In this document: positions 33,430 through 61,715 of the stretch, piece after piece
Numbering within the stretch: the stretch's first letter is position 1
Layout: each line of letters begins with the position of its first letter
Sequence record: OX638288
Reading direction: 5' to 3' (one strand)
DNA from: Escherichia phage UP19
Length of the DNA stretch: 64,000 nucleotides
Translations under genes and position numbers: made by a program
Notes under the pieces: generated by a model
Told to the model about the DNA's origin: nothing
Database searches by the model: none
The model's input: only the letters and a program-made list of their open reading frames with translations

Positions 33430-34031
33430 TAGAGGGCTTTCTCCATTTCACGAATAAGAGCAGAAATAAAAGACTCAATATCATTAGGGTCTATAATTTT
33501 TATTTCACGCTTATATTCATTTTTGCGAATAGCATCCTCGTAAATATCTACTGCGGCCAATGGGCCTTCGTATTGAGGATAACGTTTTTCTGTATCGCCT
33601 TTATCATACCAAGTATACGGATTTTCTGGTGTGTTGACAAGATTCCAGAATTTCTCGCCTTTTTCGTTTACATGGTAAAGGACCTGGTTTCCACCAGTGG
33701 TAGAATATCTTTGGATGGCTGCTTGGTAGGCGGCTTCTTGGCCGGTAATCCATCCATAATACGGGTCGTATATATTATTACACATCAGTAAAACCCAATA
33801 TAATTGGACATTGCCATAAAGAATATGGGCCAATTCTTCCGGGCGTGGGGCTCCATTGATATAATAAGTTTTTAGTGTATAATTTTTAGCCACTCTATCA
33901 AAATATTCTTTATAATTTCTAAATATATCAGTCATCGGCACGCTCAATACATCAGCATTTGTTAATGAGCCGGAATCTGGCTTGACTGTTTTTGATTCGT
34001 AATCGATAGGGTCGAAAAATGAGAAGAGCAT
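33429..34031 (-). CDS. 53: gp53 baseplate wedge protein
   Basis: 200 aa; ATG overlaps the gene 5 start region; divergent from gene 4 as in T4. Confidence 0.75.
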   Translation of the reverse strand: MLFSFFDPIDYESKTVKPDSGSLTNADVLSVPMTDIFRNYKEYFDRVAKNYTLKTYYINGAPRPEELAHILYGNVQLYWVLLMCNNIYDPYYGWITGQEAAYQAAIQRYSTTGGNQVLYHVNEKGEKFWNLVNTPENPYTWYDKGDTEKRYPQYEGPLAAVDIYEDAIRKNEYKREIKIIDPNDIESFISALIREMEKAL

Positions 34032-34043
34032 AGGGCCTCCGAG

Positions 34044-34051
34044 TATAAATA
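34044..34051 (+). promoter_or_regulatory. Late promoter TATAAATA for gene 4
   Basis: TATAAATA 27 bp upstream of the gene 4 ATG. Confidence 0.6.
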
Positions 34052-34058
34052 ATATTAA

Positions 34059-34066
34059 TATTTATA
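34059..34066 (-). promoter_or_regulatory. Late promoter TATAAATA for gene 53 (divergent partner)
   Basis: Plus-strand TATTTATA 28 bp upstream of the gene 53 ATG. Confidence 0.6.
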
Positions 34067-34077
34067 AGGAGGCAACT

Positions 34078-34527
34078 ATGGCTTACTCAGGGAAATTTAA
34101 ACCTACCAACTTACAAAAATATAAAGGTGACTGGAAGAAAATCCAATATCGTTCCTCATGGGAAGCATGGCTCATGCGTTGGCTTGACAATCATCCTAAC
34201 GTAGTCCAATGGAACTCTGAAGAGGTAGTTATTCCGTATTTTAGTAATGCTGATGGAAAGAAACGTCGATATTTTATGGACTTCTGGGTTAAGTTTGATA
34301 ATGGCCAACAATTCTTTTTTGAAGTCAAACCTTTTAAAGAAACCCATCCTCCAGCGGCTCCTGCTAAAATGACTACAGCCGCTAAAAAGAGATATATCAA
34401 CGAACATTATACATGGAGTGTAAATAAAGATAAATGGAAAGCTGCTAAAGCTACAGCAGATAAAATGGGAATCAATTTTAGATTGATAACTGAAAACTCA
34501 CTGAAAAAATTAGGATGGAAAGGATGA
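34078..34527 (+). CDS. 4: gp4 head completion protein
   Basis: 149 aa; N-terminus MAYSGKF..; AAGGAGG SD; synteny 4-2-3-1-57A-57B. Confidence 0.8.
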
Positions 34528-37699: not shown

Positions 37700-37728
37700 G
37701 TTTACAAGGTCTATAGACATGATACTAT
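37700..37728 (+). promoter_or_regulatory. Early promoter module (GTTTAC, 17 bp, TACTAT)
   Basis: GTTTAC 37700-37705; TACTATAGGCCTATCAA box. Confidence 0.6.
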
Positions 37729-37765
37729 AGGCCTATCAAAACAAACCAACCACATGGAAATCAAA

Positions 37766-38267: not shown

Positions 38268-38297
38268 GTTTACAACGGGCTTTAGTGATGATACTAT
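38268..38297 (+). promoter_or_regulatory. Early promoter module
   Basis: GTTTAC 38268-38273; TACTATAGCCCTATCAA box. Confidence 0.6.
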
Positions 38298-38333
38298 AGC
38301 CCTATCAAAACAAATGAGTGATTGGAGAATAAA

Positions 38334-41854: not shown

Positions 41855-41883
41855 GTTTACACCTCCTTTAAACGTGATACTAT
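41855..41883 (+). promoter_or_regulatory. Early promoter module; spacer CCTCCTT is complementary to the downstream SD AAGGAG
   Basis: GTTTAC 41855-41860; TACTATAGACCTATCAA box. Confidence 0.6.
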
Positions 41884-41918
41884 AGACCTATCAAAACAAC
41901 AGAGTGAAGGAGAGTAAA

Positions 41919-42182
41919 ATGGATAATTATGGTGAATTGTTTAATTTCTTTATGAAATGCGTTCCTGAAGAATTTGGTGCTACAGTAAACGATATTAAAG
42001 TTATAGGTGATGACCATCCTATATTTGAAACTTACGCAGTAATGGGTAATGACGATGGGCAGTGGTATACCGTAAAGGTTGTGGTTAATATGTTTGCTGC
42101 TGAAGGGTACGTTAAATTGTCGACCAAAGTTTATCACGATAATGATTTTGATGCGGAAGATTATTTCAATAATATGAAATAA
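41919..42182 (+). CDS. Hypothetical protein
   Basis: ATG 41919 preceded by AAGGAGAG; the ORF-track start at 41904 is a GTG. Confidence 0.5.
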   Translation: MDNYGELFNFFMKCVPEEFGATVNDIKVIGDDHPIFETYAVMGNDDGQWYTVKVVVNMFAAEGYVKLSTKVYHDNDFDAEDYFNNMK

Positions 42183-43782: not shown

Positions 43783-44069
43783 ATAAAATTGAAATTGAAA
43801 TCCCTGAATACAACGACGAGAAATCTGCAGAAAAAGCTATCTATGCTCTTCTGAATAAAGTAGATACCATCGAACATGAATGTGAAGCTATTGCTGATAA
43901 GTACGGTATTCAATTCGGAACAGGTGATTATGGCTCAGGACGTACATACTACCCTGTTGGTTATGAATGCTCCCAGTGGTTTAAAGATGAAATTGAAAAC
44001 AATGGTGGTGAAGTTGAAAATGGCGTCGTTACAGTTGGTGCCTGGATCTCCTCTTCAGCATTATGCTAA
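43779..44069 (+). CDS. Tandem small-paralog family member 1 (C-terminus ..GAWISSSALC)
   Basis: 96 aa; conserved TGCTAAGG stop/SD junction to the next gene. Confidence 0.55.
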   Translation: MNKIEIEIPEYNDEKSAEKAIYALLNKVDTIEHECEAIADKYGIQFGTGDYGSGRTYYPVGYECSQWFKDEIENNGGEVENGVVTVGAWISSSALC

Positions 44070-44078
44070 GGAAACGCT

Positions 44079-44360
44079 ATGATGAATGATAATCATAACC
44101 ACCCAGAGCTTCTGGCCGCAGTAAAAGAAATTCATGAAGCTATTCGTCGTGCCGAGGAAATTGCAGACAAATATGAGACTCATTTTAATATATACCCTGC
44201 TCGCGGTATGGGCGGTGACTATTATTCTCCTGGCGCCCTGAAAGCTGACCTAGCCCACTGGGAAGAAGATGGTCATCCTGAATGGGCTATTGTTAATACT
44301 CATGACTATACAACTGACCTGGAAAATGGTGGTTGGGTGTCCTCTTCTTCTGAATGTTAA
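44079..44360 (+). CDS. Tandem small-paralog family member 2 (..GGWVSSSSEC)
   Basis: 93 aa; shares IADKY(G/E) with member 1. Confidence 0.55.
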   Translation: MMNDNHNHPELLAAVKEIHEAIRRAEEIADKYETHFNIYPARGMGGDYYSPGALKADLAHWEEDGHPEWAIVNTHDYTTDLENGGWVSSSSEC

Positions 44361-44369
44361 GGAAATATT

Positions 44370-44567
44370 ATGTCTCGTGAATTAGATTGTGCAATCCGTA
44401 CTGCCGCCGCGGCTATTGAAAACGTTATCCAGATTTGCAAAGAAGAACGTGAAGAAGCTGATATCTATATCGATGGTGTTCGTGACCTGGAACGACATAT
44501 CACGCTTTACAATGGTTGTATTACAATTAGTGGTACCTCTTGGGTGTCCTCCTCTTACGAATGCTAA
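44370..44567 (+). CDS. Tandem small-paralog family member 3 (..TSWVSSSYEC)
   Basis: 65 aa; same C-terminal motif and junction. Confidence 0.55.
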   Translation: MSRELDCAIRTAAAAIENVIQICKEEREEADIYIDGVRDLERHITLYNGCITISGTSWVSSSYEC

Positions 44568-44576
44568 GGTAATAAA

Positions 44577-44789
44577 ATGACTATTGATGAAATTGAAAAA
44601 CAAATCCGTGAATTAGTACGTAAAGGCCAGTCCGTGGCTGATGAAACAGGTGAAGAGTTCCATGTTTCCGGTCGTGGACAATACATTTCTCCAAAGAATC
44701 CGGAATATGATGATTACGAATGGGCCCGTGATGATTACGGTATCCCAGATGGTGAAGGTTTCTGGTTTACATCCTCTATGTCTTGCTAA
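44577..44789 (+). CDS. Tandem small-paralog family member 4 (..FWFTSSMSC)
   Basis: 70 aa; same motif and junction. Confidence 0.55.
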   Translation: MTIDEIEKQIRELVRKGQSVADETGEEFHVSGRGQYISPKNPEYDDYEWARDDYGIPDGEGFWFTSSMSC

Positions 44790-44798
44790 GGTGATAAA

Positions 44799-45023
44799 AT
44801 GTCTGATATTAATGAATTAGAAAAAGCTGCTCTTGAACTGGCTGCATTGTATAAGAAAGTAAAAGATATGGCTTCTGCTCAAAGTTTTGGTGTTGAGTTA
44901 GACGATTACGATGGTGAAGTTCGTCTTGAAGATTGGTTGAATAGCTCTTGTTACGGCGAAGAAGCTGGTCGCACCTTCGTTGCTCGTTCCGATGGTAAAA
45001 TCTGGTACCCGAGCTCATGCTAA
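44799..45023 (+). CDS. Tandem small-paralog family member 5 (..KIWYPSSC)
   Basis: 74 aa; same motif. Confidence 0.55.
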   Translation: MSDINELEKAALELAALYKKVKDMASAQSFGVELDDYDGEVRLEDWLNSSCYGEEAGRTFVARSDGKIWYPSSC

Positions 45024-45244
45024 AATTAAAGAAAAGATACATTCGTAAAATAAACGGTCTTCGCGATTATGCCAAAGGTTGGCCATTAAGTATTATTATG
45101 GCTGATAGACACCCACGTTATAATACTGAGATGACCTATTATAAAAAGTATGATTCATATTGTCGGTCTAAAGCAGGTCGTTTAGATGGTTCTTATGAAG
45201 AATATTTTGGCAAAAAACCTACTCGTATTTCGTTAGGAAAATAA
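45017..45244 (+). CDS. Hypothetical basic protein
   Basis: 75-aa ORF; start uncertain because it overlaps the previous stop. Confidence 0.3.
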   Translation: MLKLKKRYIRKINGLRDYAKGWPLSIIMADRHPRYNTEMTYYKKYDSYCRSKAGRLDGSYEEYFGKKPTRISLGK

Positions 45245-45253
45245 TTTAGCCAC

Positions 45254-45604
45254 ATGGACGTGGTAGGAGGACTTATGCACAAAGATTCAGTATTCAAATA
45301 TCTTTTGAAAACAGATAAAGAATTCTATATGAATGGGCAAGCTTTCTTGTTCGTTCGTGGTAAACGTGAGATGTTTTATAAATGCGACCTCTCAATGCAC
45401 CATCACATGTATCATACTCATGGTGAGCCTATACTAGGGTTCTCTGGTGACGAGACTAGACGCATAGCTATGTATTATGACCATTTTAAGCTCAATGACT
45501 GTGGTGACAACGCTTTGGTCTGGAATCCATCTTGGCGTCGTTGGGATACGGTAGACAACGATAAATTATTTTTAGAATATTGCAGAAGTGATGTACAACT
45601 CTAA
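45254..45604 (+). CDS. Hypothetical protein
   Basis: 116-aa ORF; His-rich segment. Confidence 0.4.
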   Translation: MDVVGGLMHKDSVFKYLLKTDKEFYMNGQAFLFVRGKREMFYKCDLSMHHHMYHTHGEPILGFSGDETRRIAMYYDHFKLNDCGDNALVWNPSWRRWDTVDNDKLFLEYCRSDVQL

Positions 45605-45647
45605 AAACTTGTGTTACTATTACCTTACACAAACATGAGGAGAACAT

Positions 45648-45887
45648 ATGTGGTATTACTCTCCATTGTCTGATAAGTCTGATGAGCCGGTACGAATTAC
45701 TCGTGCCAAGTTTAAAAAGATTTATGGTTTTGCCTATAAGAAGTCTGATTATGGTGTTCGTTTTGAAGATGCTCACTGTATCAATGACCCTTATACAGAA
45801 GAAATCTCTAATGAGATAATTCCTATCATTAAGAATAATTCTGATGATATGTGGGAATTGCATAACGATTACGTTGCTGAAATTTAA
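45648..45887 (+). CDS. Hypothetical protein
   Basis: 79 aa; GAGGAG SD before the ATG. Confidence 0.45.
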   Translation: MWYYSPLSDKSDEPVRITRAKFKKIYGFAYKKSDYGVRFEDAHCINDPYTEEISNEIIPIIKNNSDDMWELHNDYVAEI

Positions 45888-45908
45888 GTTTACTCTGAGG
45901 AAAATATT

Positions 45909-46868
45909 ATGATGCTAGTTATTGGTTCTCGTGCACTGCACCATGCAGGTCTGATTGAAAGTAAGTATATAGAAAATTCTGATTGGGATTTCATTGCCGA
46001 CCAAGGCTCGTGGAATCAATTTAAAGCCCGGATGTTCGGTGCTCACGTTCCTGTGGATAATCCAGATGTCCAGGCTTTTAAATGCATGTACAATGGTAAA
46101 GAAACCTATTTTGAAGCTTATATCGTTCGTGCTCTGACTAACGTACGAGAAATTACCGGTGAGCTTCAAGACGAAGATTTCACTTCAAGCTATCGTCTCC
46201 TGAAATATGCTGAAACCCATATTCAAAAGGACCGTCTTACTGGTTTCTATTGGGCAACCCCTGATATCTGTCTGGCTATCAAAATGAGCCATCGTTATTT
46301 GAAGAACAACCCGTTCTTTTTGAAGACGATGTCCCACATCAAATATCTTCGTAATAAAGGTGTAACCTTGAATGAAGAGCTCCAAGAAATCATGTTGCAA
46401 CGTCAGAAAGAAACGTTGAGCTATTCTCATCCTAAATTGGATGTAAACAAATCATCATTCTTTAATGATACCATTTATACGCTAGACCATGACTCTATCC
46501 ACGAAGCTGTGGCATTGGCTGGACGCCCTGCATATACCTTTTATATGAAGGAAGGTTCTGAAGTCATGACCTCACGTGAGAAGTTTGAAGCTTTGCCTGA
46601 AGCTATTAAACTGGCTGGCGTATATGAAGAAACTTGTGTGTTGGCCCTAGAACGTTCACAGGTTCCTAACAACTTTAATATTTCACCGTCATTAAGTTTC
46701 TATATGGCTCTTGAGAAAGTGTGTACCTCAATCACTTCAGGCTGGTTCCGTGAGTATGCCTGGGAAAACTACCAAGCTGTAGTGAATATGTATAAGACCC
46801 TAGGTGAAAATGACTACATCAAGCGGTTCCAAGATAACCATCATTTAATTCGTCCTTTCGAAAAATAA
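45909..46868 (+). CDS. Hypothetical protein (319 aa)
   Basis: Long ORF with GAGGAAAATATT-ATG junction. Confidence 0.5.
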   Translation: MMLVIGSRALHHAGLIESKYIENSDWDFIADQGSWNQFKARMFGAHVPVDNPDVQAFKCMYNGKETYFEAYIVRALTNVREITGELQDEDFTSSYRLLKYAETHIQKDRLTGFYWATPDICLAIKMSHRYLKNNPFFLKTMSHIKYLRNKGVTLNEELQEIMLQRQKETLSYSHPKLDVNKSSFFNDTIYTLDHDSIHEAVALAGRPAYTFYMKEGSEVMTSREKFEALPEAIKLAGVYEETCVLALERSQVPNNFNISPSLSFYMALEKVCTSITSGWFREYAWENYQAVVNMYKTLGENDYIKRFQDNHHLIRPFEK

Positions 46869-46880
46869 TTGCATAAAACA

Positions 46881-46909
46881 GTATACAAGGTCTATAGGTG
46901 TGATACTAT
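46881..46909 (+). promoter_or_regulatory. Early promoter module (degenerate -35 GTATAC)
   Basis: TACTATAGACCTATCAA box; spacer GGTCTATAG pairs with the -10 region. Confidence 0.5.
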
Positions 46910-46946
46910 AGACCTATCAAAACAACAGAGTGAAATGGAGAATAAA

Positions 46947-47159
46947 ATGAAACTTTCTAACCAAGCAATCAACATGTTAAACGAAGTTCGTGCAGCTGGT
47001 GCTAAATGTCTGATGGTTAACACTCGTGACGGTGACCTTCGTCAAGCATTTGGTGAATTGAAATCTGCTGACCTGGTTAAATGTTCAGTTGGTATCGGTA
47101 ACGCACTTCGTGTATCCTTATCCCCTAAAGGTAAAATGTACTTTTTCAACAAAAAGTAA
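46947..47159 (+). CDS. Hypothetical small protein
   Basis: ATG 46947 after GGAG; the ORF-track start at 46869 precedes the promoter and is TTG. Confidence 0.45.
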   Translation: MKLSNQAINMLNEVRAAGAKCLMVNTRDGDLRQAFGELKSADLVKCSVGIGNALRVSLSPKGKMYFFNKK

Positions 47160-47173
47160 TTGAGGAAAATATT

Positions 47174-47860
47174 ATGAACAGCCCGAAAACTTTTAATTCC
47201 AAAGCTCGTGCAGTGGGTAGTTTTGCCGGTAAAATTTCTAACGATAAAATCAAAAACGAAACTATGTTCTTCAACAGCTCATTGGCTTTCGCTTTTGATA
47301 ATGGTGGCCCTATTACTCGCAGCTTCATCATGAACCTGCCGGATGATTGGAACACTGACCAGGTTGTATTTGATTCTCGAGTTCATATGCTTATGCCTGG
47401 TTGGTATCCTGCTATCCCAGGTTATCACCATGATGATGTACCACGCCCGGATATTCCGGTTGGTCAACACTTTATTACCGCAGGGCAACCTGATTATGAT
47501 AATCCTCGATACCATTCTGAACATATTCTTGGTCTTGTTAACGCTGATGTGTGTCCTACTTATTTTGCAACCGGAACTGCACAATTTAGCCAGATTCCTG
47601 AAGGCGAACTTATCTATCGCCAGTGGCATAAAGAAGTTCTGGAAAAAATTGAGTCCAATGAATTAACCAAGTGGGATGCTCCTGACCGCACATTGCTCCA
47701 GTTTGATTGGCAGACGTGGCATACTGGTTCTCGTGCAGTAAGTAATGGCTGGCGCTGGTTTGGTCGTGTGTCCCGTAATACCGACCGTGTTAAAAAGATT
47801 ACAAATGAAATCCGCGTTAATGCTCAAGTATATCTGGAATTCCCTATGGAGGGCTGGTAA
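47174..47860 (+). CDS. Hypothetical protein (228 aa)
   Basis: ORF with GAGGAAAATATT-ATG junction. Confidence 0.5.
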   Translation: MNSPKTFNSKARAVGSFAGKISNDKIKNETMFFNSSLAFAFDNGGPITRSFIMNLPDDWNTDQVVFDSRVHMLMPGWYPAIPGYHHDDVPRPDIPVGQHFITAGQPDYDNPRYHSEHILGLVNADVCPTYFATGTAQFSQIPEGELIYRQWHKEVLEKIESNELTKWDAPDRTLLQFDWQTWHTGSRAVSNGWRWFGRVSRNTDRVKKITNEIRVNAQVYLEFPMEGW

Positions 47861-48447
47861 TGGCCCTTTATGAACCTGGTTGCATGGGTGTTGATGTAAA
47901 CTTCATCCGTCGGTCAGAAAATGCCGGAATCATTATCCCAAGTGGTGAACATATGATTATTAAAAAGTCCTGGCGAAATATTGATGATGGGGATGAAGGA
48001 ATTTCAGCCAGTACAATAGATTGGTCAGGTTGTACTGCTGAAATGAAACAACTTTTAATTGAGGAATATAAAATGGGCTATATCGTAAATGGTTGGCAAC
48101 CAGAACCCCATAAAGAACAGACACCAGACCCATTGATTTGTTATAGCAAAAAATACGGCTTTCGTACATGGAGTGATGAATACGACAAATTAGTGAGTTC
48201 TAGGTTCTATGTTTGGATGGGGATATTATTTTTCCCACTCCTAGGGTTTTTCCTGACAACGGATAATGACTTACCTATTAGTGTGTTTGCTTCAGCGATG
48301 TCGGCGGCAATCTTAGGGCTTATTGCATCATTTTTATGGACTGCAGTTATTGAAGTACCTTTTCGTATTTCTAAAGTTAAAAAGGTGTATGACGATATCA
48401 CTAAGAAAAATGCATTAAACTCTTTTATTGAGGAATGCCGTAAATGA
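47860..48447 (+). CDS. Membrane protein, paralog of 43429..43782
   Basis: 195 aa; C-terminal transmembrane helices and conserved ..FIEECRK tail. Confidence 0.5.
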   Translation: MALYEPGCMGVDVNFIRRSENAGIIIPSGEHMIIKKSWRNIDDGDEGISASTIDWSGCTAEMKQLLIEEYKMGYIVNGWQPEPHKEQTPDPLICYSKKYGFRTWSDEYDKLVSSRFYVWMGILFFPLLGFFLTTDNDLPISVFASAMSAAILGLIASFLWTAVIEVPFRISKVKKVYDDITKKNALNSFIEECRK

Positions 48448-48680
48448 GTATTGCGATTTATATTAAATCCGAGTCATGCGATTCTTATCTGTATTCCTAT
48501 GACACCGGAACATCAGAAGAGAAAATCAAAGAAGATTTAGAAACCGACTTGGATATGTTCCGTCCTATTTCTGACTATATGGTCCAAGTGTCTGATAGTG
48601 AAAGCCCGTCATTAGAAAATAGACTTGAATTTTTAATGAGCGATATTTTTAACCAATCATGGAAACGTGATGATGAGTAA
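48444..48680 (+). CDS. Hypothetical acidic small protein
   Basis: 78 aa; overlaps the upstream stop. Confidence 0.4.
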   Translation: MSIAIYIKSESCDSYLYSYDTGTSEEKIKEDLETDLDMFRPISDYMVQVSDSESPSLENRLEFLMSDIFNQSWKRDDE

Positions 48681-49122
48681 GAAAGTTAAAGAACTATCAG
48701 CCGGTATTTTGTTCATGACTGTCGATAAAGAATTGGTTATGGGTCGTGTAACAGGTTCTCGTAATCCAGAGAATATGCGTCATAAATGGGACATTCCTAA
48801 AGGCCATGTCGAACCAGGTGAAGAGCCTATTCAAGCTGCTATGCGTGAAACCGAAGAAGAGATTGGATTCACTGCATATGACCCTGCGTTCCTGAAAGAC
48901 CTAGGTGAGTTCAAATATTCTAGCAATAAGAATCTACATCTGTTCTTATATACTGTGCCTGTCGAACACGAGCAGTTCAAGGATTGCAAATGTACCGCTT
49001 ATCATACGTTCCCTGACGGCCGTACGATTCCTGAATTCGATGCCTTTGCCTTGATTAAACGTCCGCAATGGGAATATGTCATGGGCCCGTCGATGTTTAA
49101 GGTTTTAGATTCGCTCTTTTGA
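48670..49122 (+). CDS. nudE: Nudix hydrolase (T4 NudE / e.1-like)
   Basis: Nudix box GHVEPGEEPIQAAMRETEEEIG; immediately upstream of e as in T4; first ATG at 48670. Confidence 0.8.
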   Translation: MMSKKVKELSAGILFMTVDKELVMGRVTGSRNPENMRHKWDIPKGHVEPGEEPIQAAMRETEEEIGFTAYDPAFLKDLGEFKYSSNKNLHLFLYTVPVEHEQFKDCKCTAYHTFPDGRTIPEFDAFALIKRPQWEYVMGPSMFKVLDSLF

Positions 49123-49130
49123 TATAAATA
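49123..49130 (+). promoter_or_regulatory. Late promoter TATAAATA for lysozyme e, inside an SD-sequestering hairpin
   Basis: TATAAATA followed by TACCTCCT..AGGAGGTA inverted repeat that pairs the e SD. Confidence 0.6.
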
Positions 49131-49152
49131 CCTCCTATAATCAGGAGGTATT

Positions 49153-49647
49153 ATGGATATTTTTGATATGTTACGTCAAGACGAAGGTCTTGATTTAAAT
49201 CTTTATAAAGACACTGAAGGTTATTGGACTATTGGTATTGGCCAGTTAGTTACCAAGAACCCATCTAAAGATGTTGCTCGTGCCGAACTTGACAAACTTA
49301 TGGGTCGGGTTTGCAATGGACGTATTACTATGGCTGAAGCTGAACAACTCTTTAACCGTTCAGTGGAAAATGCTCGTAGAGCTATAATGCGTAATCCTAA
49401 ATTGAAACCGGTTTATGATGTGCTGGACGAAGTTCGTCGTTGCGCGCTGATTAATATGGTCTTTCAAATGGGTGAAGCTGGTGTCGCTGGATTTACCAAC
49501 TCTCTGCGTATGCTCCAGCAGAAACGTTGGGATGATGCCGCAGTTAACCTGGTGCAGTCCCGTTGGTATAAGCAGACTCCGAATCGCGCTAAGCGAGTTA
49601 TCTCTACATTTAAAACAGGAACTTGGAAAGCATATGAAAACCTATAA
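49153..49647 (+). CDS. e: Endolysin (T4 lysozyme)
   Basis: 164 aa; catalytic E11, D20 and T26 conserved; roughly 70% identity by eye to T4 lysozyme as remembered. Confidence 0.93.
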
Positions 49648-49903
49648 AGAATTTTTGGCCGAATCTCAACTGAACGAAAACACTGACCTAGACCGTATGA
49701 CATTCCTGGCTAAGAAAGGCGGCTTCGAATTTAAAGCCATTAAGAAAGTAAATGGGTATTCTTTTGAAGTCGGTGAATATACCTTTGGTAACAAGGGTGA
49801 TGGCCAGTGGCAAATTGTTAAAAACGGCAAAGAAGTAGACTACCTTTTCGGTAAGAAACTTAGTGACATTGCTAAAATAATGGGCGAATATTCTAAAAAA
49901 TAG
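49634..49903 (+). CDS. Internal-protein-like gene ([10 protein letters not shown]|S)
   Basis: Capsid-targeting leader; ATG 49634 overlaps the 3' end of e. Confidence 0.6.
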
Positions 49904-49931
49904 TTTACATCTCCTGTATGCATGATATTAT
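49903..49931 (+). promoter_or_regulatory. Early promoter module; spacer CTCCTGTA pairs with the denV SD TACAGGAG
   Basis: GTTTAC 49903-49908; TATTATAGACCTATCAA. Confidence 0.6.
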
Positions 49932-49959
49932 AGACCTATCAATTACAGGAGATTACAAA

Positions 49960-50376
49960 ATGACTCGTATCAACCTTACCTTAGTATCTGAATTGGCTGA
50001 CCAACACTTAATGGCTGAATACCGTGAATTACCACGTGTTTTCGGTGCAGTTCGTAAGCATGTTGCTAACGGTAAACGTGTTCGTGATTTTAAAATCAGC
50101 CCTACTTTTATCCTTGGTACAGGCCATGTTACATTCTTTTATGATAAGCTTGAATTTTTACGTAAGCGACAAATTGAGCTTATAGCCGAATGTTTAAAAC
50201 GTGGATTCAATATCAAGGATACTACTGTCCAAGACATTTCCGATATTCCACAGGAATTCCGTGGTGATTATATTCCTCACGAAGCTTCTATCGCTATTTC
50301 ACAAGCCCGTTTGGATGAAAAAATTGCACAGCGTCCTACCTGGTACAAATATTATGGTAAGGCTATTTACGCTTAA
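49960..50376 (+). CDS. denV: Endonuclease V (pyrimidine-dimer DNA glycosylase)
   Basis: [31 protein letters not shown].. appears near-identical to T4 DenV as remembered. Confidence 0.92.
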
Positions 50377-50418
50377 TTAAATCCGTGATAGAATACTTCT
50401 ATCAACTTAAGGAATAAT

Positions 50419-50718
50419 ATGAAAACTTATCAAGAATTTATTACAGAAGCCAAAGCTCCTAAAGCATTCCAAATAGGTGTCCAAGGCACCTTAGACCAAG
50501 AATATGTTGATGCTATTGTAGCAAGCCTCGGTAAACAGGGCGTACAAGTGGATTTGGTTGATTTTACTAAAGGTAATACTTTTAATATTGTTACATCTAA
50601 AGGCTCTTTAGCTAAAGTTAAAAAGGCCTTTGGTGTAGCCCAAGCATACGAAATCGACCACTCTGAATTAGAAAATAAAGGTCGCCAGAATACAATTAAA
50701 GGTTCTGGTTCTTTCTAA
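50419..50718 (+). CDS. Internal-protein-like gene (MKTYQEFITE|AK)
   Basis: Capsid-targeting leader; 99 aa against 100 for T4 IPII. Confidence 0.6.
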   Translation: MKTYQEFITEAKAPKAFQIGVQGTLDQEYVDAIVASLGKQGVQVDLVDFTKGNTFNIVTSKGSLAKVKKAFGVAQAYEIDHSELENKGRQNTIKGSGSF

Positions 50719-50878
50719 TAAAGGCAAGCCGACCCTCTCCTCATGAACGTCGCATCCTCTGAGTGATGGACCTTTCCCTACCTGTAATAAGGTCGAGCCC
50801 AAGTGCGGTAAAGGGTTTACATACGGATACATGGATGAATTATGTGCCAAGGAACGGCCCCACAACTAAGAGACCACT

Positions 50879-51406
50879 ATGAAATTTTTAACTCCCATTT
50901 ATCTAACCTTAATGCACGCCTTCGCTGAACGCGCCATTGAACGTTTAGACTCAGACCAATATACCTGGTACGAACCCACTTCAAGAATGCAAGAGTTTGG
51001 TACTCTTCGACTTGACGGCGGGCGTCAAACAGGTAAAACAAGTGCCCTTGCCCAGTTCGCAGCTGATTGGGTTTCCAAGGGTAATGATGTGATTGTTATG
51101 TCAAGTTCTTCGCATCGCTCACGAGAAATCTGTAATATAATAAAAAGGGTTTCTAAGGCCCAACCACACCTTCAAGTAGAAGGTCCTGGGTTTGTTGTAT
51201 ATGATACCATGCGTTCATTTTTAGACGAAGATAACTTCCATAAGTATCGTGGTCTATCAGTTACTCGATTATTGATTATTATCGAAGAGCCAATGCGCCT
51301 TCCATCGATGGATAAGTTCTATGAAGCTTACCAGGTAATGATTAACAAATTTATGTGCCAGGGTTCTAAACCTCTGCCACTGTTCTTTGTGATAGGAATG
51401 CAATGA
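50879..51406 (+). CDS. Small P-loop NTPase-like protein
   Basis: Walker A-like GGRQTGKTS and Walker B-like LLIIIEE. Confidence 0.45.
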   Translation: MKFLTPIYLTLMHAFAERAIERLDSDQYTWYEPTSRMQEFGTLRLDGGRQTGKTSALAQFAADWVSKGNDVIVMSSSSHRSREICNIIKRVSKAQPHLQVEGPGFVVYDTMRSFLDEDNFHKYRGLSVTRLLIIIEEPMRLPSMDKFYEAYQVMINKFMCQGSKPLPLFFVIGMQ

Positions 51407-51699
51407 TGACTGATGAAGAGCTTTTTGAGTTCTGCTATTTCTCACGTAAGGTTCGAAGAGAGGACCTTACTGCAAATTTCGAATATGCTTATTTCTATCC
51501 ATTAGAATATGTATTCATGACAGGGCCCTTTAAGGGCTCTCGTTTTAGATGTCATGCCCCAAGCATCCGATTAATGAAACAGGTTCCTTACTTCACTCTC
51601 GAGTTCATCTCAGGCCCGTGTAAGGGTATTATTACTCGCAGTCTCTTGACGTATGACCAAGAGATTCATATGATTTCTGACTGGAAAAAATATGTCTAA
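51403..51699 (+). CDS. Hypothetical protein
   Basis: 98-aa ORF overlapping the upstream stop. Confidence 0.45.
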   Translation: MMTDEELFEFCYFSRKVRREDLTANFEYAYFYPLEYVFMTGPFKGSRFRCHAPSIRLMKQVPYFTLEFISGPCKGIITRSLLTYDQEIHMISDWKKYV

Positions 51700-52190: not shown

Positions 52191-52219
52191 GTTTACATCT
52201 CCTGTAGACGTGGTACTAT
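52191..52219 (+). promoter_or_regulatory. Early promoter module; spacer CTCCTGTAG pairs with the regB SD CTACAGGAG
   Basis: GTTTAC 52191-52196; TACTATAGACCTATCAA. Confidence 0.65.
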
Positions 52220-52247
52220 AGACCTATCAACTACAGGAGATTACAAA

Positions 52248-52706
52248 ATGTCAGAAATTAATTCAGAAGTATTCATCCGCCGCAACAAATTACGTCGACA
52301 GTTCGAAACCGAATTTCGTGAACTTAACGCGTCCATCAAAAAAGCCGCCATTAAGAGTGGTGTCCCAGCTTTCTTTATTAAGTACTCTAATCACTTGTTG
52401 GACCGTGCTATCCAACGTGAAATTGACGAAAAATATGTTTTCTCTTTGTTCAAGAAGCTCCACAATCATGTTAAAGAAATCCATGAATTTTTAATCCAGG
52501 AGCCTCTTCCTGACGTAGAATCTGAAATTGTCCCGGGTAAAGTGTATCGACCACTGCGTCTCGAGATTACCGATAAAACCTTATGGTTAGGTATGACCGT
52601 AGATCGTAAACATCCTGATAAAGGATATTCATTAAAATGCCGTATGGCATTTGTTAACTCTAAACGTTTAGAAGGTAAAACCAGCACTAAAGTAATCTAT
52701 CTTTAA
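52248..52706 (+). CDS. regB: RegB sequence-specific endoribonuclease
   Basis: ..EVFIRRNKLRR.FE.EFR.. and ..HLLDRAIQREIDE.YVF..LF.. resemble T4 RegB; about 152 aa. Confidence 0.85.
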   Translation: MSEINSEVFIRRNKLRRQFETEFRELNASIKKAAIKSGVPAFFIKYSNHLLDRAIQREIDEKYVFSLFKKLHNHVKEIHEFLIQEPLPDVESEIVPGKVYRPLRLEITDKTLWLGMTVDRKHPDKGYSLKCRMAFVNSKRLEGKTSTKVIYL

Positions 52707-55237: not shown

Positions 55238-55516
55238 ATGGACCTAAATTCAAAGATTTTAATTCTAGCGTTCGCTGTGGCCATCTCTTATATTGTTCTT
55301 TCGCCCATCATGGATGATGCGGCTTACAAAAGAGAGATAGAAGTTGTAGCAGCGACGTATAATGCTAATAATAAAGAATGCCCTAATAAAAATGGAATGG
55401 ATTTAATTAAAGCACATTATATGCTTTCCATTACCTCGCCTATACAGAGGAATTGGGTTGAATATAATTTTAACGACGTGTTCTATTCTTATTGTCGTAA
55501 GCTTAAAAAGCTATAA
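55238..55516 (+). CDS. Small membrane protein
   Basis: N-terminal transmembrane helix; 92 aa. Confidence 0.45.
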   Translation: MDLNSKILILAFAVAISYIVLSPIMDDAAYKREIEVVAATYNANNKECPNKNGMDLIKAHYMLSITSPIQRNWVEYNFNDVFYSYCRKLKKL

Positions 55517-55519
55517 ATA
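55512..55519 (+). promoter_or_regulatory. Late promoter TATAAATA upstream of rI
   Basis: TATAAATA about 90 bp before the rI ATG. Confidence 0.4.
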
Positions 55520-56313: not shown

Positions 56314-56342
56314 GTTTACTTCCTCTAGGAACGTGATACTAT
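56314..56342 (+). promoter_or_regulatory. Early promoter module
   Basis: GTTTAC 56314-56319; TACTATAGACCTATCAA. Confidence 0.6.
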
Positions 56343-56370
56343 AGACCTATCAACTAATGAGGAGAACAGT

Positions 56371-56607
56371 ATGAAACTTACAAGTACTACGGTTTCATTG
56401 GAATATGAAATCAATAACCGCCTCCTTGAGATTAAGATATTCGACGACCGAAGTATCTTTGCTGACTACCGAGGGTACAGAATTCGCCTAGAAAAGGACG
56501 AGCTCAAGGAACCACGGCTCCTTAAAGACACATTAAAGGGATGTGGGTGTAAGCTGAAGACCACTCAAGCCCAAGAATTAATTTCTACTATCAACAAATA
56601 CTGGTGA
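56371..56607 (+). CDS. Hypothetical protein
   Basis: 78 aa; GAGGAG SD. Confidence 0.45.
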   Translation: MKLTSTTVSLEYEINNRLLEIKIFDDRSIFADYRGYRIRLEKDELKEPRLLKDTLKGCGCKLKTTQAQELISTINKYW

Positions 56608-61135: not shown

Positions 61136-61164
61136 GTTTACATCTCCAGTAGAAATGATACTAT
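61136..61164 (+). promoter_or_regulatory. Early promoter module; spacer CTCCAGTAG pairs with the SD CTACTGGAG
   Basis: GTTTAC 61136-61141; TACTATAGACCTATCAA. Confidence 0.65.
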
Positions 61165-61190
61165 AGACCTATCAACTACTGGAGGTTATC

Positions 61191-61715
61191 ATGAACGCTA
61201 AAGATATTTTTTCACTGATTAATTTTAACAATGGTAATTTCAAATCTGAAAAACAAAGCAAGTTCTTTAACGACGTTGCTTGTGGTAATGAGATTACCGT
61301 ATCTGGAGGAGAGATTTACAAAAGCCGTTGGAACTGGATTGCTGTCATTGATTCAGTTGGTATTGTAGAGCTCTATAAAAACACTAACAAAAAACGTACT
61401 CTTCACTGGAGTCGTGAAACCAATCAAGCTTATCAAGCTGAACGTAACAAACGTTTAATGCCTACTGAATCTGACCTGGCAAACGTTAAATCAGATATCG
61501 CTTATTTTGATAACTTGATTGCTGAACAACAAGCGGTTATTGATAAGTTTGATGAAATCAAAGCTTGTAAAGAGATTCCTGAATTCATGCGGGAATCAGT
61601 AAACGAACAATACGCCCTCACTTCAGGTCGTATCGAACAGTACAAATCGCAACGAGCTGAACGCCAAGCTCTGCTTCAGAAATTTGAAGAGCGTTTAAAG
61701 ACGGTTCTCGCATAA
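61191..61715 (+). CDS. Hypothetical protein
   Basis: 174-aa ORF. Confidence 0.5.
   Translation: MNAKDIFSLINFNNGNFKSEKQSKFFNDVACGNEITVSGGEIYKSRWNWIAVIDSVGIVELYKNTNKKRTLHWSRETNQAYQAERNKRLMPTESDLANVKSDIAYFDNLIAEQQAVIDKFDEIKACKEIPEFMRESVNEQYALTSGRIEQYKSQRAERQALLQKFEERLKTVLA

Follow-up and report, generated by a model that had tools for sequence, protein, structure and literature searches.

The 30 nt that separate nudE from the endolysin gene e in Escherichia phage UP19 (sequence record OX638288) very probably carry a promoter-dependent translational switch orthologous to that of phage T4 gene e; we put the probability of this reading at about 0.85. The analysis covered a stretch of 64,000 nt, here called the window, in which the nudE-e intergenic space consists of a late promoter box and a hairpin and nothing else. 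The data support identification of the feature as the known T4 gene e switch in a Dhakavirus-type phage, that is, as a real, conserved, and ordinary element. The T4 mechanism was reportedly demonstrated by experiment in 1986 by McPheeters, Christensen, Young, Stormo, and Gold (NAR 14:5813). Since conservation in close relatives was also noted in 2010, the feature is already known, and the e switch here opens no new question; its practical use is in annotation, where it pinpoints the late promoter with its likely start site and the true RBS for the endolysin of a Dhakavirus-like genome. The elements of the locus are as follows.

48667..49122, + strand: nudE (Nudix hydrolase), from a Pfam NUDIX match (E = 7.9e-15) and the nudE annotation in relatives
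49123..49130, + strand: T4-type late promoter box TATAAATA (positions −13 to −6), from sequence match and the box position rule (PMC1524935)
49127..49136, + strand: hairpin 5′ arm AATACCTCCT
49136..49137, + strand: late transcription start, predicted from the box position rule
49137..49142, + strand: hairpin loop ATAATC (ATACTC in close relatives)
49143..49152, + strand: hairpin 3′ arm AGGAGGTATT, with the SD AGGAGG (49143-49148) and the spacer to the ATG
49153..49647, + strand: gene e, soluble T4-type lysozyme (endolysin) of 164 aa, from Pfam Phage_lysozyme (PF00959, E = 8e-13)
49634..49903, + strand: 89-aa ORF, overlapping the 3′ end of e by 14 nt
ATG at 49960: denV, from Pfam Pyr_excise
52248-52706: regB, from Pfam-based gene identification

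Across positions 48600 to 49700, the DNA is 94% identical to Escherichia phage dhabil and 90 to 93% identical to JS98-group phages (Dhakavirus, Tevenvirinae); judged by sequence, the phage is T4-like and of the Dhakavirus type. The e protein, whose start codon is the ATG at 49153-49155, shares 95 to 98% identity with Dhakavirus e and ~78% with Tequatrovirus e, and the gene order nudE-e-(small ORF)-denV matches that of T4, dhabil, and SP18. By protein identity and conserved synteny, this gene is the orthologue of T4 lysozyme e. The cistron directly 5′ of e is nudE, the stop codon of which (TGA, 49120-49122) abuts the late box. The 89-aa ORF matched no Pfam family and would be co-transcribed on the late e RNA; the corresponding position in T4 is occupied by the internal-protein genes ipIII and ipII. 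The longest denV ORF (49918-50376, 152 aa) starts at 49918; three features, namely the position of the early promoter (−10 at 49926-49931), that of the SD, and the Pfam match, point instead to the ATG at 49960 as the true start, for a predicted protein of 138 aa. Neither gp55 nor gp33 is encoded within the 64-kb window, and we assume from the Tevenvirinae affiliation that the phage has both.

The box TATAAATA directly follows the nudE stop and lies 30 nt before the ATG of e. This sequence occurs 16 times in the window versus 7.5 expected, a count reached by none of 100 shuffles. Twelve candidate gene starts have a box no more than 70 nt upstream; 9 of these 12 boxes lie 29 to 37 nt before the ATG, and the e box stands at −30. 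A copy at 55512-55519 (+ strand) has no SD or ATG within 47 nt downstream. In T4, the late box occupies −13 to −6, and A often replaces T at −13 in relatives (Nolan et al. 2006, PMC1524935); a box at −13 to −6 places the predicted +1 of e at ~49136. From this geometry, we infer that the late e RNA would keep at most 1 nt of the 5′ arm. The segment 3′ of a T4-type late box is normally AT-rich (PMC2988020). Among the 16 boxes, that of e alone is followed by a GC-rich pentamer (CCTCC, 4/5 GC, versus 0 to 3 GC for the other 15), and this CCTCC (49131-49135) is the anti-SD, filling the −5 to −1 segment between late box and +1.

The sequence-only reading had set the late box at 49123-49130 beside a hairpin with arms TACCTCCT (49129-49136) and AGGAGGTA (49143-49150), the loop ATAATC, and pairing to the e SD. 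All of these were found at those positions, and the stem proved 2 bp longer, with 10 perfect bp between AATACCTCCT and AGGAGGTATT and the 3′ arm immediately before the ATG. The computed energy was −13.1 kcal/mol for the hairpin alone and −14.1 kcal/mol for the 33-nt segment (z = −6.8; none of 1000 shuffles as stable). RNA folding, proposed as a check, also bore the hairpin out: RNAfold kept the SD-sequestering structure in both the MFE and the centroid in all upstream contexts (60, 100, and 200 nt), with a computed SD pairing probability of 0.98, wholly with upstream bases. A covariance model of the e module gave a single + strand match in the window, at 49123-49155 (53 bits, E ~1e-11). No match at gathering score was returned by an Rfam scan, which gave three chance matches (15 to 21 bits versus 45 to 57; E = 1.9 to 4.2).

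Could such a hairpin be a by-product palindrome without function, formed where two AT-rich stretches, the promoter tail and the SD-to-ATG spacer, happen to be complementary? We consider this extremely improbable. The stem is not significant alone, as two perfect hairpins of at least 10 bp were found in 64 kb versus 0.93 expected (~0.9 per shuffled window), and the outer AATA and TATT sequences are each constrained for other reasons. The second perfect 10-bp hairpin is an early-promoter hairpin at 46888. It is the position of the arms that goes beyond chance, with a gene's SD as the 3′ arm and with the 5′ arm occupying the −5 to −1 segment of a late box. Late promoters, moreover, do not need the CCTCC core, which none of the other 15 boxes has, and experiments in T4 show function (PMC3014915). 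A palindrome of this sort does arise automatically between the divergent gp53/gp4 late promoters (34031-34078), a point on the side of chance. There, gp53 (33432-34031, − strand) and a gp4-like gene with a TnsA fold (34078-34524, + strand) flank CCTCCTTATAAATATTAATATTATTTATACTCGGAGG, a near-palindrome in which either SD doubles as the anti-SD of the opposite gene. This probably follows automatically from the symmetry of the SD-plus-box arrangement and cautions against taking SD hairpins as regulatory.

In T4, early read-through e RNA forms an inhibitory structure, with lysozyme synthesis ~100-fold lower (Uzan and Miller 2010, PMC3014915); transcripts from either of two late promoters just 5′ of the RBS lack the 5′ portion and translate well (PMC3014915). 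Close T4-type relatives are predicted to have comparable leaders in which the 5′ strand is encoded by late promoters (PMC3014915, Fig. 5A). The sequence-only reading had likened the present hairpin to this classic control, and the comparison holds up well, since every sequence-level element of the published mechanism (PMC3014915) is present in an orthologous gene in the same synteny. In both phages, nudE lies upstream, the 3′ arm comprises the SD AGGAGG and a TATT spacer, the 5′ arm AATACC(T/U)xC overlaps the end of the TATAAATA box, and, here by prediction, e falls within an early read-through unit and +1 is 3′ of the anti-SD. The two differ in detail: T4 has two late boxes (−34 and −21 from the ATG), the second of which forms its 8-nt loop, whereas there is one here; the T4 stem has 11 bp with one G.U pair, versus 10 perfect bp and a 6-nt loop; and the nudE-e space is 37 nt in T4 versus 30 nt here, where the nudE stop abuts the box. 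The switch is known by experiment in T4 and is predicted from sequence in this phage.

The proposed switch would work as follows. Before replication, RNA from upstream early promoters (the nearest at ~46.9 kb) would read via nudE into e; in this read-through RNA, AAUACCUCCU would pair with AGGAGGUAUU, burying the SD in a 10-bp hairpin directly before the AUG, and the buried SD would lead to poor 30S binding and little lysozyme early. After replication, the gp55/gp33/gp45-RNA polymerase would read TATAAATA at 49123-49130 and initiate at ~49136. Because this start is 3′ of the anti-SD, the late RNA could not form the hairpin and, with a 17-nt leader and a free SD, would be translated. For this phage, we infer the transcript starts, the early read-through, and the translational effect, together with a selective rationale, the avoidance of premature lysis. 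The early promoter closest to e on its 5′ side is the following.

46881..46920, + strand: nearest upstream T4-type early promoter, with −35 GTATAC, −10 TACTAT, and the conserved start region TATAGACCTATCAA

This promoter, a conserved one at 46881-46909, is the likely origin of read-through RNA reaching e, which is the sixth cistron of the tightly packed unit that follows it; the cistrons from 46947 to 49122 are separated by gaps of 14, −1, −4, and −14 nt. A terminator scan of 44000-51521 found no + strand terminator-like site, and a regex search for MotA-box middle promoters in 44000-49200 found no convincing site. Given the upstream early promoter, the packed cistrons, and the lack of a + strand terminator, early read-through into e is plausible. 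In the computed ensemble, opening the RBS (SD through AUG+3) would cost 13 to 15 kcal/mol in RNA starting 60 to 200 nt upstream, versus ~5 kcal/mol in RNA starting at 49133-49140. The residual ~5 kcal/mol in the late RNA arises because the SD pairs weakly with codons 4 to 6 of e; in the predicted late RNA, this pairing lies within 49140-49171 (UUUUUGAU).

The hairpin might act less as a switch than as an attenuator opened by ribosomes terminating at the nudE stop, such that low early e translation would be proportional to nudE translation and the late promoter would add the main burst. We regard this as unlikely. Within the unit, cistrons abut closely or overlap, an arrangement seen in coupled operons, and just 4 nt separate the nudE stop (49120-49122) from the 5′ arm, which begins at 49127. 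The ribosome usually covers ~9 to 10 nt on the 3′ side of the A-site codon, and by this footprint a ribosome at the nudE stop would unpair 49127-49132, ~6 of the 10 paired bases of the 5′ arm. Because a terminating ribosome so close to the arm may transiently expose the SD, the early RNA may not be fully silent. However, T4 has a similar geometry (stop-to-arm distance of 7 nt) and makes ~100-fold less lysozyme from early RNA (PMC3014915). In addition, Salmonella phage S16 keeps the hairpin although its nearest annotated upstream gene ends ~500 nt before e, and coupling therefore cannot be the conserved role.

Even less do we expect the hairpin to serve mainly as an RNA processing, stability, or termination element instead of a translational block, whether as an intrinsic terminator after nudE or as a shield of the SD GGAG from RegB and other RNases; such a role seems very improbable. 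In early SDs, GGAG is cleaved by RegB when unpaired and is shielded by secondary structure (PMC3014915); regB is present in the window (52248-52706), and the e SD contains GGAG. Shielding would, however, follow from the same pairing that blocks the ribosome and is compatible with the promoter-dependent switch. Two specific candidates were rejected. As an intrinsic terminator, the stem lacks a U-tract after it (ATTATGG; ATTATGGAT), and the terminator scan did not call the hairpin. As a strong RegB site, for which the consensus is GG*AGRAYARAA (PMC3014915), the GGAG of e would lie within the stem of read-through RNA, and the bases after it, GTATTAT, depart from the GGAGRAYARAA consensus.

The comparison took in e leaders from T4, 80 IMG/VR loci, and 11 named phages. 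The module precedes e in T4 and in Dhakavirus (dhabil), Gaprivervirus (SP18), Marfavirus (Marfa), Gelderlandvirus (S16), Moonvirus (Merlin), Karamvirus (EnC15), Jiaodavirus (phiA85), and Muldoonvirus VP8. It is absent from Serratia phage WSPA (VP8's genus), phi92, and an Aeromonas Tulanevirus, the last in agreement with Aeromonas T4-type phages described as without the e leader structure (PMC3014915). Pairing is kept in 16 distinct leaders from 10 genera, with differing stem registers, and all 21 IMG/VR loci in which e is at least 63% identical carry (T/A/G)ATAAATA followed by an anti-SD hairpin. The conserved hairpins have stems of 7 to 13 bp (−9 to −17 kcal/mol; z from −3.6 to −7.6), with one G.U pair each in the T4 and S16 stems. 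Every module-bearing leader has its anti-SD core 3′ of the box and 5′ of the predicted +1, such that the late RNA would keep 0 to 4 inner arm bases. Leaders without the outer AATA/TATT pairs have inner TAT(C/A)/(G/T)ATA pairs, and vice versa, and in Gaprivervirus an SD of GGGGG is matched by an anti-SD of CCCC. At least 10 T4-type genera retain the classic T4 device, by which transcription of the lysis-enzyme gene is uncoupled from its translation. The comparison adds two points: the five bases that separate the late box from +1 always hold the anti-SD, the price being an atypically GC-rich melting segment, and stem stability is maintained through an exchange of outer for inner pairs.

A plain MAFFT alignment of 17 leaders yielded no consensus structure with RNAalifold, because MAFFT mis-registers the arms (ACCTCC against AC-TCC). 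In a second alignment, for which a covariance model was built and the leaders were fitted to the structure, 86% of cells were paired, versus 40 to 54% with partners slid. Covariation on the fixed 12-pair consensus was not above shuffles; one pair showed a double change and 6 of the 12 were invariant. This non-significance, which counts in favor of chance complementarity, is expected where most pairs are invariant and both arms are further constrained as promoter and SD sequence, and covariation is not claimed as support. The case from conservation rests instead on the maintained pairing, the register trade-off, and the atypical CCTCC. Presence of the module in 10 genera with differing stem registers and matched SD/anti-SD variants argues against a chance palindrome and for the switch.

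Leaders that depart from this pattern were also observed. In the Muldoonvirus pair, Cronobacter phage VP8 (L090, 541-603) has the full box and a 10-bp anti-SD hairpin before e, and WSPA (L089, 541-603) keeps TATAAATA without the hairpin (−4.1 kcal/mol, z = −1.2). WSPA is a case of natural loss of the hairpin and could serve to test the cost of the switch. On five IMG/VR contigs (L033-L037, ~1440-1503), distant e-like lysozymes (40 to 50% identity) are preceded by longer hairpins in which CCTC/CCTCTT pairs with a GAGG/AAGAGG SD, with an ATAAATA-like box in the 5′ arm (L035-L037) or in the loop region. Their geometry is unlike that of the e module, the anti-SD being upstream of the box, and no close relative of these contigs was found in the phage collection.

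Hairpins that combine a late promoter with RBS sequestration have been described for T4 I-TevI (td intron), I-TevII, I-TevIII, segB, soc, and gene 49, and for Aeh1 mobE (PMC2988022, PMC3014915). The I-TevI/soc/gene 49 group shares the logic of the e switch: early and middle read-through RNA folds a hairpin over the RBS, and a late promoter within or just before the structure yields RNA without the 5′ arm. Unlike e, however, these are other genes (homing endonucleases, a capsid decoration protein, and endonuclease VII) with unrelated stems.

Near e, the most interesting lead is a set of hairpins at early promoters, which may deserve a separate look. The + strand of the window carries 11 copies of the early promoter (−35 GTTTAC, −10 TA(C/T)TAT, start region TATAGACCTATCAA) versus 0.67 expected, and in 4 or 5 of these 11 the −35/−10 spacer shows complementarity to the SD of the immediately following gene.

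49903-49962: denV early-promoter hairpin, arms 49909-49918 and 49944-49953
52191-52250: regB early-promoter hairpin, arms 52199-52207 and 52231-52239
61136-61193: early-promoter hairpin of the gene at 61191, arms 61144-61152 and 61176-61184
41855-41921: early-promoter hairpin of the gene at 41919
56314-56405: weaker spacer/SD case, promoter at 56340

Examples of such anti-SD/SD pairs are CTCCTGTA with TACAGGAG and CTCCAGTAG with CTACTGGAG. The sequence-only reading had taken the lysozyme hairpin as support for these structures. That support is by analogy only; the early-promoter hairpins are real on separate grounds, as the duplex energies of spacers with their own SDs beat those of cross-pairs (permutation P = 1.5e-4), and such hairpins also occur at T4 regB, T4 denV, and Merlin denV, with stems that are different or compensated. 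The 5′ arm would be missing from transcripts that start at the gene's own promoter, and read-through RNA would sequester the SD. The e switch likewise has a 5′ arm that is embedded in the promoter and complementary to the SD further 3′; unlike in e, the promoters here are of the sigma-70 early class, the arm is in the −35/−10 spacer, and the prediction is not late activation but translation restricted to own-promoter (immediate-early) RNA. No published description of early-promoter anti-SD hairpins was found in the searchable literature, although the older T4 literature may have one. It is conceivable, if rather doubtful, that the e hairpin is one case of a genome-wide T4-type rule by which promoters of more than one class embed an SD-sequestering 5′ arm upstream of their own start. 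Were this so, the promoter of origin, and not mere transcription, would decide whether a cistron is translated.

At three other early promoters (37700-37745, 38270-38310, and 46887-46915), the spacer is complementary to the promoter's own −10/+1 region and not to an SD: GGTCTATAG or GGGCTTTAG pairs with CTATAGACC in hairpins of 9 to 10 bp (z about −4 to −5). The window as a whole holds an excess of short perfect hairpins (loops of 3 to 10 nt), with 36 stems of at least 8 bp versus 11 expected and 11 stems of at least 9 bp versus 3 expected, and the early-promoter hairpins explain part of this excess.
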